Shown here in pieces: positions 59,248-64,000 of a DNA stretch of 64,000 nucleotides. The position numbers and the translations under genes are program-made. The notes beneath the pieces were generated by a model. That model saw nothing but the letters and a program-made list of their open reading frames with translations. It searched no databases and had not been told where the DNA came from. Every line of letters begins with the position of its first letter. Position 1 is the first letter of the stretch. The DNA is from an uncultured delta proteobacterium (GTDB lineage: Bacteria > Myxococcota_A > Polyangia > Palsa-1104): positions 1-64,000 of the forward strand of contig CAWAWS010000002.1 of assembly GCA_963785725.1 (NCBI GenBank). The letters are read 5' to 3'.

Positions 59248-60243
59248 GTGAAAAGACGCCCTCTTATTGACCGTCGCTTTGGAAGAACAGATTCTGACGG
59301 CATGGACAGGAAGCGTCGCCGCGAATCCGGTTCCGCGAAAGCGACTCTCACGGATCGCGAAATGATGTTGCGCGCCGTTGCGCTCGCTCGAAACTGCAGG
59401 AGTGAGAAAGGAAAGACATCCCCAAAGGTCGGCGCGGTCGTCGCCCGCGATGGCCGAGTCCTCGGCGAGGCTTTCCGGGGCGAGCGCAAGCCAGGACAGC
59501 ACGCGGAGTTCACGCTTCTCGAAGGAAAGCTCTCGGAAGAGCTGCTCGCCGGCGCGACCCTGTTCACGACGCTCGAACCCTGCACATCGCGTAATCACCC
59601 GAAGATCCCGTGCGCAGAACGGATCGTCGAGCGGCGCATCGCACGAGTCTTTATCGGAACCCTCGATCCGAACGACCGAATTCGTGGCCGCGGCGAGCTG
59701 CGGTTACGGGACGCGGGCATTCACATCGCGCGGTTCGACTCCGATCTGATGGCAGCGATCGAGGAGATCAACCGCGAGTTCACACGTTCCCAACGCACGG
59801 GTCCGATGGAACGAAGCCCGTCCCAGACCCATGACCCCGTTTCACCGGATGAAGTCGGTCCGAATGGTCACCGAATCGGCTACACGAAACGTGGCGACAA
59901 GGTCGAATGGATTCCAGACGAGGAGCATCCGAATCGGGAATGGCCTCTTCTGCTCAGACGCAACGACAAGTCGATCCTTAAGGAATACAAAGAGCATTGG
60001 GACAAGGTTTGGTGGAACAGGCATCAGAACTGGGTCCATCGAATAAAGACGGGCGAAGAGCAGCTTACGGCGGAGCAAAAGCCCGTATTTGAGCGAGCGC
60101 GCAAAGCTGCAAAGCGAATCGAGAAAAAATACGGGCGGAAGAATCTGGGCTGGGACGACTTCGAGTGGGGCCTGTTGAGCGGACGGTTGTCTGCTCTGTC
60201 GTGGGTACTCGGATCTGAATGGAACGAGTCTCTCGACACGTAA
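59248..60243 (+). CDS. Zn-dependent deaminase (RibD-N/dCMP-type) fused to an unassigned Trp-rich C-terminal domain
   Basis: [30 protein letters not shown]-terminus WDKVWWNRH...[26 protein letters not shown] is not a RibD reductase. Start may be 59302. Confidence 0.85.
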
Positions 60244-60519
60244 GATCATTGCATACGTCACTGTAATTGAGCATGACGGATTGCGCCGAAAATGCCGTTC
60301 GCTGCTAATTGTGAAGATCGCTGAGCTTTCCTTTTTACGCGGGTAATTCGCGACAAAATCGCAGCACTATTATTCGGCTAAGCGCGCAGAACTATTGAGT
60401 CGGTTTTTGAGACTGGCGAGAATTTATATCGCCAATGAGCGCGGACAGTTAACCGATTGGGGCAGGAAAATCGCGCCGCGCGCCCCCAAAACGACGACTC
60501 CTCATCGTTAAAGCCGTCT

Positions 60520-61439
60520 TCAAATAAGGATTTCGTCGACTAATAGCGCCCACGGATGCGGCTTCGATCGCCTGTTGTCCGCCTTCTCTTCTATCTGCTC
60601 GAAGCCGGTCCAGATCTCGTCGCGGTAACGACGTGGCGTCGGCTCGCTGCTGACCGCGTTCGGCAAGCCCGCAATGACTACGAGCCCCTCATCTTTTCGG
60701 TCGTCAATCGCAGCGACCACGCGAACGACAACACGAATTGGCGTACCATTTGACGCGTGGACTTGGAGCGCGCGCGTCTGGGCGGCGTCCATCGTGATGA
60801 CGGTGAGCAAGAAGGGCCTCGGCAACGTGCCAATGCGACGGCCAATCTCGAAACGAGCGCCCGTTGCGTGCGGGATTCCAAGGACGAGGCAATCCGAGTA
60901 CCGCAGGCCGCGTTGGCTCGTGACCTCGCCATCGACGTAGTAACGCTCGCCGGCGTGGGCCGCGTAAGCAGTGAAGACCTCGACCAACTGCGCCGGGCCG
61001 AAGGGCGGAATAGGGCCGTTCTTAGTCGACACCGACGGTCGCTCGCCCGCCTTTCGTTCCGCGGCAACGAAGACGTCTAAGCTGGAACGGGGTGGCAGCT
61101 CGTCGGCGATGCGTGACGCCTTGGCGGGAGCCGCAGGCGCCTCGGTCGCCTGGAGCTCCATCCAGTCAACCTCGCTCGTGCCAAGCGCTGTGAGCGCAGC
61201 GCGATGTTCTTGAGCGTCTTTGGGTACACCCAGGACCGCCGACCATGCTCGAGATCGATGATGGTTTTGGCGTCGACCTCGGCTTCGGCAGCCAGATCGC
61301 GAATCGAAACTTCGACGTCGTTCCGAAGCTCGCGCAGACGCTTGCCGTTACAGGCGATTCTCTGGCCGCGCGTCACTTCGACGGTTCTACCAAAGACACG
61401 ACGGGTCGGCCAGATGATGGAGTCCGCTGGAGAGTCCAC
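60520..61439 (-). CDS. XRE-HTH protein with C-terminal domain, split by one apparent frameshift near 61200
   Basis: NGKRLRELR...SIRDLAAEAEVDAKTIIDLEHG..YPKTLKNIA continues in another frame as AALTALGTSEVDWMELQ into ORF 60520..61161. Confidence 0.65.
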
Positions 61440-61496
61440 CGCGCACCACCGGGCTCTATCCTTGCCGCACCATGCGCCACGCTAAACCCTCACGTA

Positions 61497-62126
61497 ATGA
61501 GCGAGAGCGAGCTCGACGATCAGCGGCTGCTGGAGCAAGTCTGCAACCGCAACCCGCGCGCCTGGTGCGTGATGGTTCGCCGCCACGAGTCGCGGCTGCG
61601 CGAGGCCATCCGCGAGGCTGCCGACGCGGATGCGCCGCTTCGCACCGACCAAGTGGACGACGTCGTCGGCGACCTGTGGCTGCTCTTGCTGGAAGACGAT
61701 CTGCGACGGCTGCGCAGCTTTCATGGCGACGACCTCGGCGCATGGTTAGCGATGGTCGCTTGTCAGGTCGCCATGAACCGCATTCGCGAGCTGGCGCGCG
61801 AACCGCCGACCGAGCCGCTCGACGAAGAGCTTCACGCTCATGCAGCGTCCGATAACGAGAAACGAATTATCGTAAATCATTCAACTCGACCGAAAGTTGA
61901 ATATGTCACTGTATCCGAGGCTGCTCGCGCACTGAGCGTCTCGCCCAAGACCGTCTATCGCCTGGTCTGGCGCGGCGAGCTGCCTTCGAGGCGGGTCGGC
62001 CGAACCCTCCGCATCGCTTCCTCCGCGCTCACCGTCGCTGGCGGGTCGGCTCCCAGGGCTGGAATTGGTCGGACCAGCATGATAGAGTCCAAGCGTAGGT
62101 CGCGTTCCGGCATGGGAGCTCGATGA
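61497..62126 (+). CDS. ECF sigma region-2-like domain fused to an excisionase-type HTH
   Basis: DDQRLL...AW..MVRRH...DDVVGDLWLLLLEDD.RRLRSF.G..LGAWL..VA...AMN.IR, then YVTVSEAARALSVSPKTVYRLVWRGELPSRRVGRTLRI. ATGA overlap with the integrase. Confidence 0.8.
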   Translation: MSESELDDQRLLEQVCNRNPRAWCVMVRRHESRLREAIREAADADAPLRTDQVDDVVGDLWLLLLEDDLRRLRSFHGDDLGAWLAMVACQVAMNRIRELAREPPTEPLDEELHAHAASDNEKRIIVNHSTRPKVEYVTVSEAARALSVSPKTVYRLVWRGELPSRRVGRTLRIASSALTVAGGSAPRAGIGRTSMIESKRRSRSGMGAR

Positions 62127-63325
62127 TGCCGGCGTACAAGGACGAACGAGATGGTCAATGGAGATGGCGGCGCATAATTCGATATTGGGACGGCCGAAAA
62201 GTAAGGGAAAGAGGTACGCCCCAAATCAACACGAAGGAAGCCGCGATTGCGGACGAGACGCGCGCAATCCGCGAAGCGGAGAAGCCGCCGGCCGCCAAAC
62301 CGAAGGAGGTGCCGACACTACGACAGTGGATTTGGGGCGCGGTCGATCCTGAGCCGCGCAGCGCAAAGCCGAAGGGACGTTTCTGGATGGAGTGGGTGTT
62401 GTCGAAGGAGAACAAGGCGAGCGAGATGGAAGCGAGGCTGTCGATCTATCGGCACCACCTCGGGCCGGCGTTCGGCGACACGACGCTGGACGAGATCGAC
62501 ATTCCTGCGATTGCTCGCTTCCGCACGTCGCTGCGGCAGGACAAGCAGCTCACCAAGAAGACGTGCAACAACATCCTCGCCGTCCTCAGCAAGACGCTGC
62601 GGTACGCGGCGGACGCGCAGGTCATCACGCACGCGCCCAAGGTCGGTCTCTTCAAGCTCGAGCGTCCCGAGATCGAATATTGGGACTATCGGCAGTACGC
62701 GCGCGTTCTCGAAGCCGCGCGGCGCGAAGGCGCCGAGTGGTACGCGGCGGTCTGCTTGGCTGGCGAGGCAGGCTTGCGCGTCGGCGAGGTGCGAGCGTTG
62801 CGCTGGCGTGAGGACGTCGACCTCGTCGCCGGAACGATCACGGTCAACGAGCAGACGCGTCATGGTGTCACGGGCACGCCGAAGGGCGGACGGCGACGCA
62901 AGATTCCGATGACGCAAACACTCGTCGCGGCGCTCAAGCGGCTCGACGTCGTTCGCAGCGGTCTCGTCGTCCGCAATCTGGACGGCTCGCCCAAGAGCGA
63001 TGGCGAGACGACGCACGCCATCCGTCGAGTCTGCCGCGGGGCAGGCTTGCCGGAGACCGGCTGGTATCGCCTGCGACACACCTTCGGGACGCACGCAGCG
63101 CTGCTCGGGCTCAACCCGTTCCGGCTGCAGGCGTACCTCGGGCATCGCTCGATGAACGAGACGATGCTCTACGTGCACCTGGCCGAGGCGCACTCGCGTC
63201 CGACGCCGCCCGAGATCCTGCGAGCAGCCGAAGGCGAGACCGACCCCGATCGACGCGTCCTGGCCATGCTCGGTGGCCGCATCGGCGTGCCGCGTGGCCA
63301 GGAACAGGAGCTCGCCATGGCGTAG
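62123..63325 (+). CDS. Tyrosine recombinase/integrase
   Basis: GLRVGEVRALRW (R), TPKGG (K), YRLRHTF (HxxR with H>Y), LGH, TMLYVH (Y); arm-binding-like N-terminus. Confidence 0.93.
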   Translation: MMPAYKDERDGQWRWRRIIRYWDGRKVRERGTPQINTKEAAIADETRAIREAEKPPAAKPKEVPTLRQWIWGAVDPEPRSAKPKGRFWMEWVLSKENKASEMEARLSIYRHHLGPAFGDTTLDEIDIPAIARFRTSLRQDKQLTKKTCNNILAVLSKTLRYAADAQVITHAPKVGLFKLERPEIEYWDYRQYARVLEAARREGAEWYAAVCLAGEAGLRVGEVRALRWREDVDLVAGTITVNEQTRHGVTGTPKGGRRRKIPMTQTLVAALKRLDVVRSGLVVRNLDGSPKSDGETTHAIRRVCRGAGLPETGWYRLRHTFGTHAALLGLNPFRLQAYLGHRSMNETMLYVHLAEAHSRPTPPEILRAAEGETDPDRRVLAMLGGRIGVPRGQEQELAMA

Positions 63326-63334
63326 CCCGATCGC

Positions 63335-63355
63335 CGTGGCCACAGCGTGGCCACA
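63335..63355 (+). repeat. Direct repeat CGTGGCCACA x2 (candidate integrase arm site)
   Basis: 11-bp period; related GTGGCACC x2 at 63591-63609. Confidence 0.6.
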
Positions 63356-63384
63356 ACTCGTTTTCGACCAATAGGCCCAAAACG

Positions 63385-63416
63385 AAAAAGCCCCAAGTCC
63401 GAGAGGACTTGGAGCT
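63385..63416 (-). terminator. Rho-independent terminator downstream of the tRNA fragment
   Basis: AGCTCCAAGTCC-TCTC-GGACTTGGGGCT followed by TTTT on the minus strand. Confidence 0.8.
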
Positions 63417-63425
63417 GAAAAGCAA

Positions 63426-63453
63426 TGGAGCGGGAGACGGGACTTGAACCCGT
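63426..63453 (-). mobile_element. att core: 3' fragment of a tRNA, probably tRNA-Gly
   Basis: ACGGG-TTCAAGT-CCCGT T-arm, CTCCCGC acceptor strand, U73 and CCA; no D or anticodon arms upstream. Confidence 0.85.
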
Positions 63454-63590
63454 CAAGGCAGGAAATCGAAAACCGGAGGCGCGACGCTGGCTTGCGACGT
63501 ATCCTCTGATTTTAACTGCCGATTTCTCCTTGGGTACGGTCCATTTCACTCCGGCTCAAACCGCCTCGGAACCTTCAAATCCGGAGCGCT

Positions 63591-63609
63591 GTGGCACCCG
63601 CGTGGCACC
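63591..63609 (+). repeat. Direct repeat GTGGCACC x2 (candidate arm site on the other side of the core)
   Basis: 11-bp period, same orientation as the 63335 repeats. Confidence 0.55.
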
Positions 63610-63789
63610 GGCTTTCGCACAGCCGAAGCTCACGTCTCGACTGCGGAATACATTGAGCGCTTCCGCGAGGGCCTACGCAAGCTGATGTTGCGTGGAACAT
63701 GCGAGGCACTCGAGCCCAGGAATTCGTCAACCGAGCGCGCCCGCGACCTCAAATCGACCAACGCTGCCATTCGCGCCAACCGCACCCGC

Positions 63790-63960
63790 CGCCCCGTGAC
63801 GTAGAGCCCCATCGCCCGTCTGCGCTCGGGCCGGCCCATGCCATCGACCATCGAGTCGATAAAGCCACCAAACTCGCAATCCAGTCGATCGATCTCTCGC
63901 TTCATGCTGACGGTAGATCACATTATCGGATCGCGAGCAACAAGTGAGCAGGTAGTACTA
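63790..63960 (-). mobile_element. IS701-family remnant (transposase N-terminus)
   Basis: MKREIDRLDCEFGGFIDSMVDGMGRPERRRAMGLYVTG resembles IS701 N-termini (GR.ERR....Y..GL); truncated after it. Confidence 0.65.
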
Positions 63961-64000
63961 TGACGTCCAATGCTGCAGTGTTTCTCTTGACTCCGGATGA

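Follow-up and report, generated by a model that had tools for sequence, protein, structure and literature searches.

Toward its end the window, that is, the whole stretch of 64,000 nucleotides analyzed here, holds the decayed 4-kb remnant of an island at a tRNA-Gly site (island A). The source genome belongs to a soil myxobacterium and is an 88%-complete assembly of 8.9 Mb in 47 contigs. Within the remnant, one gene combines a domain resembling region 2 of ECF sigma factors with an excisionase-type winged helix and runs into the gene of a tyrosine integrase. A paralog of this fusion gene is located 24 kb away in the next island of the same genome (island B), and copies are also present in related genomes. 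The GC content drops from about 0.66-0.70 to 0.50-0.63 from about 59.0 kb on, and the deaminase-family gene found in this stretch is probably cargo of the remnant. The genes, and the parts of the fusion protein, are the following.

59248..60243, plus strand: gene for a 331-aa protein of the cytidine/dCMP-deaminase family (dCMP_cyt_deam_1, 1.1e-12), in the lower-GC stretch
60520..61161, minus strand: 213-aa ORF, C-terminal part of a broken repressor-like gene (44% identity across 215 columns with the C-terminal portion of a single island-B ORF)
61077..61439, minus strand: 120-aa XRE-type HTH ORF, N-terminal piece of the same frameshifted gene (HTH_19, 8.6e-6; 26 bits, below the cut-off of 30.2)
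61497..62126, plus strand: fusion gene (P0001), 209 aa, stop included (ORF, start taken from homolog N-termini, junction spanned by independent contigs)
61497..61799, plus strand: residues 1-101, helical domain like ECF sigma region 2 (AF2, Foldseek, sigmaE profile match, sub-threshold NCBIfam matches)
61800..61901, plus strand: residues 102-135, linker, predicted to be disordered (pLDDT below 50 for 109-133)
61902..62042, plus strand: residues 136-182, excisionase-type winged helix, HTH_17/TIGR01764 (Pfam, NCBIfam, AF2, Foldseek)
62043..62123, plus strand: residues 183-209, basic disordered tail (pLDDT below 50 for 181-209), kept among the closest homologs (..SGRRSRSGIGGR)
62123..63325, plus strand: tyrosine integrase, 400 aa (Phage_integrase 5.4e-23; phrog_1 integrase 9e-51)

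The reading frame of the fusion gene is open across 61245-62126 on the plus strand, and its start was placed at 61497, yielding 209 residues, because close homologs begin with MSESDL or MNDTDL. The integrase ATG at 62123 overlaps the fusion TGA at 62124-62126 (ATGA). The initial annotation had described the two genes as translationally coupled; the overlap is confirmed, and it is from this overlap that we infer the coupling.

A divergent switch with an XRE-HTH gene on the opposite strand had also been proposed. The minus-strand ORF exists, but its family match is sub-threshold and it is a fragment of a frameshifted gene, an HTH-plus-C-domain gene that is intact in the neighboring island. In island A the frame shifts between about 61173 and 61200, leaving the HTH and the C-terminal piece in different frames. 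The HTH piece shares 45% identity with the N-terminus of its intact island-B counterpart, for which HTH_31 is above the cut-off (32.5 bits versus 27), and the 213-aa ORF matches no Pfam, NCBIfam or PHROG family. Elsewhere the source genome has at least one more apparent frameshift, in rpoC.

Most other loci contain two further genes between the operon start and the fusion gene. The genes upstream of the fusion were assigned to no family, and no anti-sigma-like gene was recognized among them. A hydropathy scan for transmembrane segments picked out a single marginal one, in one of the two geneY homologs, and nothing in geneX, and the products are therefore not regarded as membrane proteins. No conserved promoter-like motif was found upstream of the operon in five aligned loci, a scan for sigma70-type promoters returned 0 sites here, and Rfam matches on 60000-64000 were at chance level only.

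Downstream of the integrase gene lies a set of short elements around the junction of the two islands.

63336..63354, plus strand: pair of GTGGCCAC boxes, 11 bp apart, on the integrase-proximal arm of island A, where they form a candidate arm-type site (motif search)
63389..63416, minus strand: hairpin with a 12-bp stem followed by a T-run, between the integrase gene and the att core, with an equivalent in the arm of island B
63427..63453, plus strand: 27-nt att core at the A/B island junction, identical to the 3' end of tRNA-Gly(GCC) at C2:87239-87265
63483..63499, plus strand: conserved motif GACGCTGGCTTGCGACG, some 30 bp into the integrase-distal arm of island B; candidate winged-helix site
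63591..63609, plus strand: pair of GTGGCACC boxes, 11 bp apart, on the arm of island B that is distal to the integrase gene (motif search)

The 8.9-Mb genome has the pattern GTGGCMMC-N3-GTGGCMMC at just 4 positions, each of them in an island arm (reversed control, 0). Since GTGGCAYC boxes are present on both arms, they fit integrase arm sites rather than Xis sites. The motif GACGCTGGCTTGCGACG is found at five places of the genome with at most 1 mismatch (control, 0), and in three arms its distances to the core and to the GTGGCAYC boxes are identical; that it might be the target of the winged helix is our guess from this arm conservation. For the left end of island A, the window contains no second copy of the 27-nt core with up to 3 mismatches, and the search for a left arm found neither a copy of the arm 19-mer nor useful repeats. 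The remnant has no left arm, a disrupted repressor gene and an operon short of two genes; given this decay, the copy in the window may be idle or may act in trans on island B.

Two domains in one reading frame

The N-terminal domain resembles region 2 of a sigma factor, as judged by modeled fold and by profile. In the AF2 model residues 8-101 are helical, with a block pLDDT of 79-94, and Foldseek superposes the domain on region 2 of sigmaE (4lup_A) with a TM score of 0.81 and an rmsd of 2.0 A over 97 columns; the second match is 2map (TM 0.78). Because Pfam Sigma70_r2 gave no match to the fusion protein itself at E<=1, sigma2 is assigned here from profiles, fold and paralogs. Over residues 2-120 the NCBIfam sigma models score far below their cut-offs (PRK11922 2.7e-7, TIGR03001 1.1e-5, TIGR02937 2.7e-4), the sigma70-ECF model TIGR02937 at 20.6 bits against the required 42.9. 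A profile of seven family sequences matches E. coli sigmaE chains over residues 5-106 (E 1.5e-3), and one member of the family, P0035, carries HTH_17 and also clears the Pfam threshold for Sigma70_r2. A sibling ECF sigma factor of the same genome (C14:148 kb) is 34% identical to the N-domain and passes TIGR02937 at 61.9 bits. The domain also carries the sigma2 motif pattern DDVxGDxWL ... F ... WL. The best matches in the ESM Atlas are short sigma-70 region-2 clusters, which at 0.84-0.86 stay under the 0.9 level and serve as leads only.

The C-terminal domain is recognized by family models directly. HTH_17 matches residues 136-178 (E 1.4e-12, 48.1 bits, cut-off 27) and the NCBIfam 'excise' model TIGR01764 reaches 41.3 bits (cut-off 28.8), while PHROG matches of the fusion protein fall in excisionase/RDF families. 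Its topology in the AF2 model is beta-alpha-alpha-beta-beta-alpha. Pukovnik Xis (4j2n_A) superposes with a TM score of 0.82 and an rmsd of 1.7 A in Foldseek and is also found by hmmsearch with the family profile (E 1.5e-4); the fold of BldC (6ama_A) fits as well, with a TM score of 0.84. Between the two domains, the linker begins with a conserved stretch, P103..L108, of which P103 and L108 are kept in at least 76% of 29 sequences. Sigma70_r4 and r4_2 gave no Pfam match at E<=1, and region 4.1 is absent. The initial annotation had seen one unbroken ORF with an ECF region-2-like domain and an excisionase-type HTH in place of sigma4, a description borne out by the intact 209-aa ORF, the fold and profile matches and the missing sigma4.

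By family and position, the C-domain is most likely the directionality factor (RDF) of the island, because the corresponding position in a related island is taken by an 82-aa Xis that stands alone. This protein (locus L030) is 46% identical to the C-domain, and its gene overlaps that of an integrase 52% identical to the one in the window. When the 415 six-frame ORFs of islands A and B were compared with the winged-helix profile, the two fusion genes alone matched (E 2e-21 and 6e-23, with the next ORF at 0.048), leaving no other RDF candidate in this set.

A conserved architecture beside integrases

The joining of a sigma2-like and an excisionase-type domain is a genuine, conserved architecture and no accident. 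Full-length homologs share 42-68% identity with the fusion protein. The combination of N-domain and HTH_17 is found at E<=1e-3 in 24 of 49 distant cluster representatives, drawn from the best 150, and 20 of these 24 are over the cut-off. In all eight distinct loci with downstream sequence, the one-ORF fusion is directly followed and overlapped by an integrase gene, the setting in which the initial annotation had proposed to look for full-length homologs; five of these are of type 1 (L001, L003, L015, L016, L070) and three of type 2, with another integrase family (L002, L017=L036, L072), and a ninth fusion locus, L069, stops at a contig end. The domain junction at 61800-61900 is spanned by contigs from three soil runs that differ from the window by substitutions only (X1 61664-62006, X2 61747-62369, X4 61735-62154), and no insertion or deletion against the soil-run contigs is listed before 63369.

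These observations bear on the explanation that an assembly error, an indel or a chance deletion joined two genes in the source genome only, with homologs encoded separately. An 88%-complete assembly in 47 contigs with apparent frameshifts in rpoC and in the neighboring repressor gene would make such an event conceivable. It is already refuted, and we give it next to no weight, given the full-length homologs, the paralog in island B and the copies in related genomes, the 24 distant representatives with the same architecture, and the independent contigs that cross the junction free of indels.

A quick tree separates all 32 HTH_17-bearing N-domains from the 12 sigma4-bearing ones by a branch whose SH-aLRT support is 98%. 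The N-domain is also joined to unrelated, non-HTH C-termini (P0011, P0012, P0031, P0042, P0075 and others), and for this reason it could be a general interaction module. A search with the seven-row profile found just 2 loci in genomes, of which one, L037, is an ordinary ECF sigma factor with a zinc anti-sigma, and 9 in metagenomes; the same search of viral contigs returned none. A phylum-wide search of 401 genomes at E<=1e-22 gave matches in 16 genomes, which outside the source genome cover only profile positions of about 5-160. No clear full-length fusion was seen outside the source genome in this sample, in which 8 candidates per genome were scored and which says little about range.

Predicted docking on RNA polymerase and possible roles

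Co-folding of residues 1-110 with the genome's own beta' clamp-helix fragment, based on a 29-row alignment, gave a score of 0.82, against 0.00 for the best of 3 controls. This mark is reached by 116 of 157 solved complexes and by 2 of 215 mismatched pairs, counts that hold only roughly here as an alignment of our own was used. The runs agree in at least 96% of contacts, the partner pLDDT is at least 86, and the predicted beta' contacts involve W23, D54, D55, W61 and L62. Conservation is higher at the predicted interface than elsewhere (2.82 versus 2.29 bits; one-sided Mann-Whitney p 0.004, a value that is overstated because the sequences are related). The N-domain is thus predicted to dock on the clamp helices of the host beta' subunit, with a score to which resemblance to solved sigma2-beta' structures may contribute. 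Contact with the beta flap, used by canonical sigma factors and by sigmaI, is not predicted, since HTH_17 is without sigma region 4.1.

Our working proposal, which we hold tentatively and put a little short of probable, is that the fusion protein occupies the RDF slot of a tRNA-Gly island and is either an excisionase tethered to RNA polymerase or a sigma-like factor without sigma4. Upon derepression of the island operon, it would be made together with the integrase. Its winged helix would bind island DNA, with candidate sites in the integrase-distal arm such as the GACGCTGGCTTGCGACG box about 30 bp from the core, and would act with the integrase as an RDF, as the stand-alone 82-aa relative presumably does. 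The N-domain would dock as sigma2 does, on the clamp helices of the beta' subunit in core RNA polymerase. Core enzyme could then be recruited to island DNA beside the binding site, in the way of a sigma4-less initiation factor, or the excisive complex could be tethered to the transcription machinery. With N-domain docking and co-production with the integrase, the protein would link excision control to RNA polymerase. The two functions that the initial annotation had considered, a coupling of element-specific transcription to excision and a sigma factor whose -35 reader has been exchanged, both agree with these observations.

One might instead see an unorthodox but true sigma factor, in which sigma2 binds core enzyme and the -10 element and the winged helix replaces sigma4 as a -35-like reader, switching on island genes with no role in directionality. 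The sigma2 fold and the conserved sigma2 motifs and linker start speak for it, as do the predicted beta' docking and an N-domain lineage that is old and diversified along with the C-domain rather than arising by recent accident. We nevertheless consider it unlikely: in the same slot, the nearest relative of the C-domain is a free-standing protein of excisionase size in front of a 52%-identical integrase, islands A and B would be left without an RDF of Xis type, as they have no other Xis-type gene, and no conserved candidate promoter was found. We also know of no flap-tip-binding surface in HTH_17, which in this respect differs from the C-domain of SigI. That domain provides a precedent for the idea, being a non-sigma4 domain that reads the -35 element by winged-HTH-like DNA binding (PMC10575876). 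An equally doubtful reading keeps the excisionase and lets the sigma2-like domain lose its polymerase contact, to serve as an anti-sigma-binding mimic, as a multimerization domain or as a contact for the integrase or the products of the upstream genes. The occurrence of the same N-domain on several unrelated HTH-free C-termini fits such a portable module, two conserved genes always precede the fusion gene in intact loci, and sigma mimicry of the PhyR type is an established principle. Against this, the positions of sigma2 that face the beta' clamp helices are the best conserved and the complex model passes its controls; no anti-sigma-like gene is recognized beside the fusion genes, and the upstream genes belong to no family and show one marginal hydrophobic segment. 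PhyR-like proteins, whose sigma-like domain binds an anti-sigma factor, retain a degenerate sigma4 and a receiver domain. Both are absent here, a response-regulator receiver being missing from the Pfam and NCBIfam matches of the fusion protein.

Still less probable, in our judgment, is a plain DNA-binding regulator of the integrase operon, a repressor or activator of int that is neither RDF nor sigma-like and whose position reflects regulation only. Many small HTH_17/MerR-like proteins do regulate transcription, among them BldC, whose fold fits the C-domain, and RDFs such as P2 Cox and TorI double as regulators. Such a role would leave unexplained both the conserved sigma2 domain and the stand-alone, Xis-size ortholog in the same slot. 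A bolder extension of the working proposal, which we consider unlikely, is that the family represents a lineage of sigma4-less sigma factors of mobile islands, with the excisionase domain as upstream promoter reader. The same att-arm contacts would then set directionality and load core RNA polymerase, making excision and island transcription one event. If so, the other C-terminal partners of the N-domain would be signs that Myxococcota have a broader range of modular initiation factors, of a 'sigma2-plus-anything' type.

Relation to known factors

Excisionases and sigma factors are each well understood separately. A conserved single polypeptide that joins an excisionase domain to a sigma half predicted to dock on core polymerase is not described in the literature searched; the initial annotation had not recognized the architecture as characterized either, and our searches found no paper on a sigma2-HTH_17 protein. 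If the N-domain binds core RNA polymerase, this would be the second natural case, after sigmaI, of sigma2 combined with a non-sigma4 DNA reader, and it would connect site-specific recombination directly and physically to transcription in mobile islands. The question is directly testable, as the proteins are small and the att sites of the islands are defined here.

With the HTH_17 (TIGR01764) RDFs, such as Pukovnik Xis (4J2N), L5 gp36 and lambda Xis, the fusion protein shares the family thresholds and a fold that superposes at 1.7 A, as well as a gene position at the tRNA-proximal island end, immediately before a tyrosine integrase gene and overlapping it. RDFs of this type are small, with a single domain and about 55-130 aa, whereas the 209-aa fusion has a 100-residue sigma2 domain and a 34-residue linker in front, and its RDF activity is putative. 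With group IV (ECF) sigma factors, including E. coli sigmaE (PDB 1OR7, 4LUP, 6JBQ) and the sibling at C14:148 kb, it has in common the modeled sigma2 fold, the motif pattern and the predicted seat on the beta' clamp helices. It differs from them in having no sigma4 (regions 4.1 and 4.2) and no recognized anti-sigma gene beside it, and in sitting in the integrase operon of a mobile island. PhyR-type mimics fuse a sigma-like domain to a receiver, in contrast to the fusion described here. The arrangement of genes resembles that in Tn916, whose regulatory region consists of orf9 for an HTH repressor, the sigma-like orf7, orf8, xis and int. In both, sigma-like and excisionase coding regions lie together ahead of int, with an HTH repressor gene on the opposite side; Tn916 keeps them as separate genes, and here they make one polypeptide.

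In principle the architecture is not without precedent, since sigmaI of Bacilli and Clostridia pairs sigma2 with a -35 reader other than sigma4. In the SigI1 and SigI6 open complexes, a sigma2 domain is combined with a C-terminal domain that is unrelated to sigma4 and binds DNA like a winged HTH (PMC10575876), which is the principle common to sigmaI and the fusion protein. The SigI C-domain is larger, has a different fold, grips the beta flap-tip helix and is controlled by RsgI anti-sigma factors (PMC10575876); the fusion has HTH_17, belongs to an integrase operon and bears no sequence relationship to it. No sigmaI model is among the sigma matches of the fusion protein in Pfam and NCBIfam. A two-part logic of the same kind, an HTH part reading a DNA site and another part engaging RNA polymerase, is found in DNA-loaded accessory factors of RNA polymerase such as the phage Q proteins and AlpA of P. 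aeruginosa, a Q-like factor that inserts into the RNA exit channel (PMC9371919). AlpA as described there differs from the fusion in having no sigma2 domain, no HTH_17 excisionase and no link to an integrase.

Architecture and conservation of the fusion protein

The fusion gene lies within an open frame at 61245-62126 (+). Because the N-termini of its closest homologs (MSESDL and MNDTDL) map to the ATG at 61497, we take the gene as 61497-62126, encoding a protein of 209 amino acids, P0001. Residues 136-178 match Pfam HTH_17 (E 1.4e-12, 48.1 bits, cut-off 27), and the C-terminal part scores as the excisionase-family domain TIGR01764 of NCBIfam (41.3 bits, cut-off 28.8). Sigma70_r2 gave no match to the single sequence (Pfam, E≤1); residues 2-120 align to NCBIfam sigma-factor models, all well under their cut-offs (PRK11922, E 2.7e-7; TIGR03001, 1.1e-5; TIGR02937, 2.7e-4). 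A family profile of seven full-length homologs matched Pukovnik Xis in its C-terminal part (4j2n, E 1.5e-4) and residues 5-106 of Escherichia coli sigmaE in its N-terminal part (6jbq_F, 1.5e-3; 1or7_A, 3.2e-3).

In an AlphaFold2 model from the same alignment (mean pLDDT 71.5), residues 8-101 form a helical domain predicted with confidence, residues 109-133 fall under pLDDT 50 within a disordered linker, residues 136-182 adopt a β-α-α-β-β-α fold, and the basic tail is disordered. Foldseek against the PDB placed the N-domain on region 2 of sigmaE (4lup_A; TM 0.81, rmsd 2.0 Å over 97 columns) and the C-domain on Pukovnik Xis (4j2n_A; TM 0.82, rmsd 1.7 Å) and BldC (6ama_A; TM 0.84). P0001 has no sigma4: the region 4.1 helices are absent, and a β-hairpin wing follows the HTH.

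The architecture is conserved. A word-indexed search returned full-length proteins at 42-68% identity (P0003, P0004, P0005, P0009 and P0010) and two further proteins matching by the N-domain only, while an exhaustive profile search returned 321 cluster representatives at E≤1e-10. Among the 49 of the best 150 representatives that were scanned with Pfam, 24 join the N-domain to HTH_17 (E≤1e-3), 20 of them over the HTH_17 cut-off; the 25th HTH_17 match, P0071, has tandem HTHs and lacks the N-domain. One relative, P0035, exceeds both cut-offs, Sigma70_r2 (30 bits) and HTH_17. In the genome itself (8.9 Mb in 47 contigs, 88% complete), another full-length fusion lies 24 kb downstream, and a third copy, whose winged helix is a variant one, is on contig 20; the N-domain also shares 34% identity with a bona fide ECF sigma factor of this genome, which has both sigma2 and sigma4 (TIGR02937, 61.9 bits). 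The linker region at 61800-61900 is spanned by contigs assembled from three soil runs that come from different studies, two of the three also covering the fusion-integrase overlap; they differ from the window by substitutions only, with no indel listed before 63369.

The initial annotation had described one frame joining a sigma2-like domain to an excisionase-type HTH in place of sigma4, which the HTH_17 and TIGR01764 matches and the sigmaE fold match bear out. It had also considered that the fusion might be unique and born of an indel, and had proposed a read check of the linker and a search for homologs beside integrases. The linker is intact in all three soil runs, and the full-length relatives, the further genomic copies and the indel-free contigs argue against such an origin; we regard an artefact as extremely improbable. 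A quick maximum-likelihood tree of 85 N-domains (98 columns), poorly resolved and with its careful search unfinished, sets all 32 HTH_17-bearing proteins on one side of a branch (98% SH-aLRT), with the 12 sigma4-bearing proteins and 18 others opposite. This pattern, in a tree that is midpoint-rooted only, fits an old fusion lineage over repeated accidents.

Integrase linkage and tandem islands at tRNA-Gly

A tRNA-Gly(GCC) gene lies at C2:87239-87313 (contig 2, which continues the window numbering), and its 3' end recurs without a mismatch as the 27 nt at 63427-63453, indicating two tandem islands at one tRNA gene (63427-63453 and C2:63454-87313; loci L034 and L035):

Island A, ending at 63453: carries the fusion and integrase genes under study
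Island B, 63454-87238: closes with a fusion gene of its own (200 aa) that an integrase gene overlaps

The island B integrase (411 aa) is about 60% identical to that of the window. At the junction of the two islands, the right arm of A, the 27-nt core and the left arm of B together have an attP-like layout. Cargo of island B in L034 includes a 2584-aa Rhs/YD-repeat protein (YD-shell, teneurin-like; C2:64573-72327 (-)) and a Ser/Thr kinase domain split across two adjacent ORFs (C2:72450-73910 (-)); no phage structural or transfer genes were recognised in this island.

The initial annotation had the window integrase gene (62123-63325; Phage_integrase, 5.4e-23) translationally coupled to the fusion gene; its ATG at 62123 overlaps the fusion's TGA. 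The search for full-length homologs extended this arrangement: an integrase gene overlaps the 3' end of the full fusion ORF in all eight distinct loci with downstream sequence, one further locus, outside this count, ending at a contig end. In the five type 1 loci the integrases share 34-60% identity with the window's and the overlaps measure 4-10 nt; the three type 2 loci have a variant form of the winged helix, and their integrase belongs to another subfamily. At locus L030 the gene for a stand-alone 82-aa excisionase-family protein, 46% identical to the fusion C-domain, lies in front of an integrase gene and overlaps it in the same manner; that integrase shares 52% identity with the window's. 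Since a C-domain profile, run against the 415 ORFs read in six frames from the two islands, found no domain of that kind beyond the fusions, the C-domain is, by sequence, the only recognisable candidate recombination directionality factor (RDF) of its type there.

In a Myxococcales MAG, L036 (PNAM01000009.1, 4233-7514) holds a tRNA-Gly-like gene with integrase genes on both sides: on the 5' side a type 2 fusion and its integrase, on the 3' side an integrase 59% identical to the window's, where no Xis gene was recognised.

Two genes, geneX (about 200 aa) and geneY (286-381 aa), always stand upstream of the fusion gene in intact loci. The order geneX-geneY-fusion-integrase occurs in island B, L016, L069 and L036/L017, and partly in L071. 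Neither gene matched any family searched; their products might act with the fusion protein as partners, or regulate it. Their regions are:

L035, 252-1970: geneX and geneY
L036, 2509-3971: geneX and geneY
L069, 1898-3432: geneX and geneY
L016 and L071: also with a geneX/geneY region

The sigma2-like domain and possible functions

Tentatively, and with somewhat less than even confidence, we infer that P0001 is an excisionase in the RDF slot tethered to a sigma2 domain. Fusion protein and integrase would be produced from one operon, the winged helix would bind island DNA, and the N-domain would bind core RNA polymerase.

The N-domain is strongly conserved in family alignments, its commonest conserved positions including W23, D54, D55, W61, L62, D68, L72, R73, W83 and L84. 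Residues 1-110, represented by a 29-row alignment, were folded together with a 137-residue piece of the genome's own β' that includes the clamp helices; the predicted complex scored 0.82 vs 0.00 for the best of three controls. Of 157 solved complexes, 116 reach this mark, as do 2 of 215 mismatched pairs, counts that are rough here, our own alignment having been used. Runs agreed in at least 96% of contacts, with partner pLDDT of at least 86. The predicted contacts involve the helix with D54, D55, W61 and L62, together with W23 and the conserved linker start, and predicted-interface positions carry 2.82 vs 2.29 bits elsewhere (one-sided Mann-Whitney p 0.004, a generous value since the sequences are related). 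As sigma2-β' complexes have already been solved, the score may reflect likeness to these in place of retained binding.

In other proteins the same N-domain precedes several different C-termini, none of them sigma4 or an HTH, including regions without a Pfam match (P0011, P0012, P0031, P0032, P0042, P0075, P0086 and P0091), which suggests, from domain composition, a modular set of sigma2 plus variable C-domain. This variety keeps alive the view of the domain as a portable interaction module, and thus of P0001 as an excisionase whose sigma2 relic serves regulation or interaction, which we nevertheless judge unlikely. Equally to be weighed is a pure sigma factor without sigma4. We consider this reading rather improbable for P0001. 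Its precedent is SigmaI, in which sigma2 works alongside a reader other than sigma4 whose DNA binding resembles that of a winged HTH; the SigmaI C-domain, however, also grips the flap-tip helix (PMC10575876). A plain regulator of int is less probable still. AlpA and Q proteins offer a two-part logic in unrelated proteins, a DNA-site reader joined to a part that engages RNA polymerase (PMC9371919). A full-text literature search, with subscription journals and domain-architecture databases outside its scope, found nothing on a sigma2-excisionase protein.

Decay of island A and motifs of the island arms

Island A looks like a remnant, given that the GC drop toward it begins only near 59.0 kb, that the window holds no second 27-nt core copy or left-arm motif for it, that the two genes found upstream of the fusion elsewhere are absent, and that its divergent gene appears broken. 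The initial annotation had read the latter as an XRE-HTH gene. The HTH ORF is present (61077-61439 (-)) but represents, with a 213-aa ORF (60520-61161 (-)), two frames of one HTH-plus-C-domain gene, intact in a single frame in island B (C2:82581-83396 (+); N-terminus passing HTH_31). The apparent frame change falls between ~61173 and 61200, beside an inverted repeat at 61185-61202. In rpoC (L078, G000:C6:189400-189650) the frame is lost in the N-terminal part, where a stop separates its two Pfam matches, probably through an assembly error in the MAG; single frameshifts in this assembly need read support. The low-GC stretch of remnant A also encodes a 331-aa deaminase-family protein (59248-60243 (+); dCMP_cyt_deam_1, with a weaker Inv-AAD/APOBEC-like match) whose 150-residue C-terminal extension belongs to no family.

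Pairs of GTGGCMMC boxes at 11-bp spacing are confined to four places in the whole genome, all island arms (reversed control, 0), and those on both arms are, judged by sequence, probably arm-type sites of the integrase:

63336-63354: island A right arm
63591-63609 and C2:87151-87169: both arms of island B
C14:412178-412196: one arm, contig 14

The genome has five occurrences of the 17-mer GACGCTGGCTTGCGACG (control, 0); wherever the arm was readable, the 17-mer sits about 30 bp into an integrase-distal arm:

Window 63483-63499
C14:412287
C24:187452
C4:53089
C39:772206

This matches the placement of Xis sites in lambda and L5, and by position the 17-mer is a lead as a candidate Xis-type site. 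Five such arms stand against only two integrases of the window's type found in the genome, and several may be orphan remnants or have unassembled partners.
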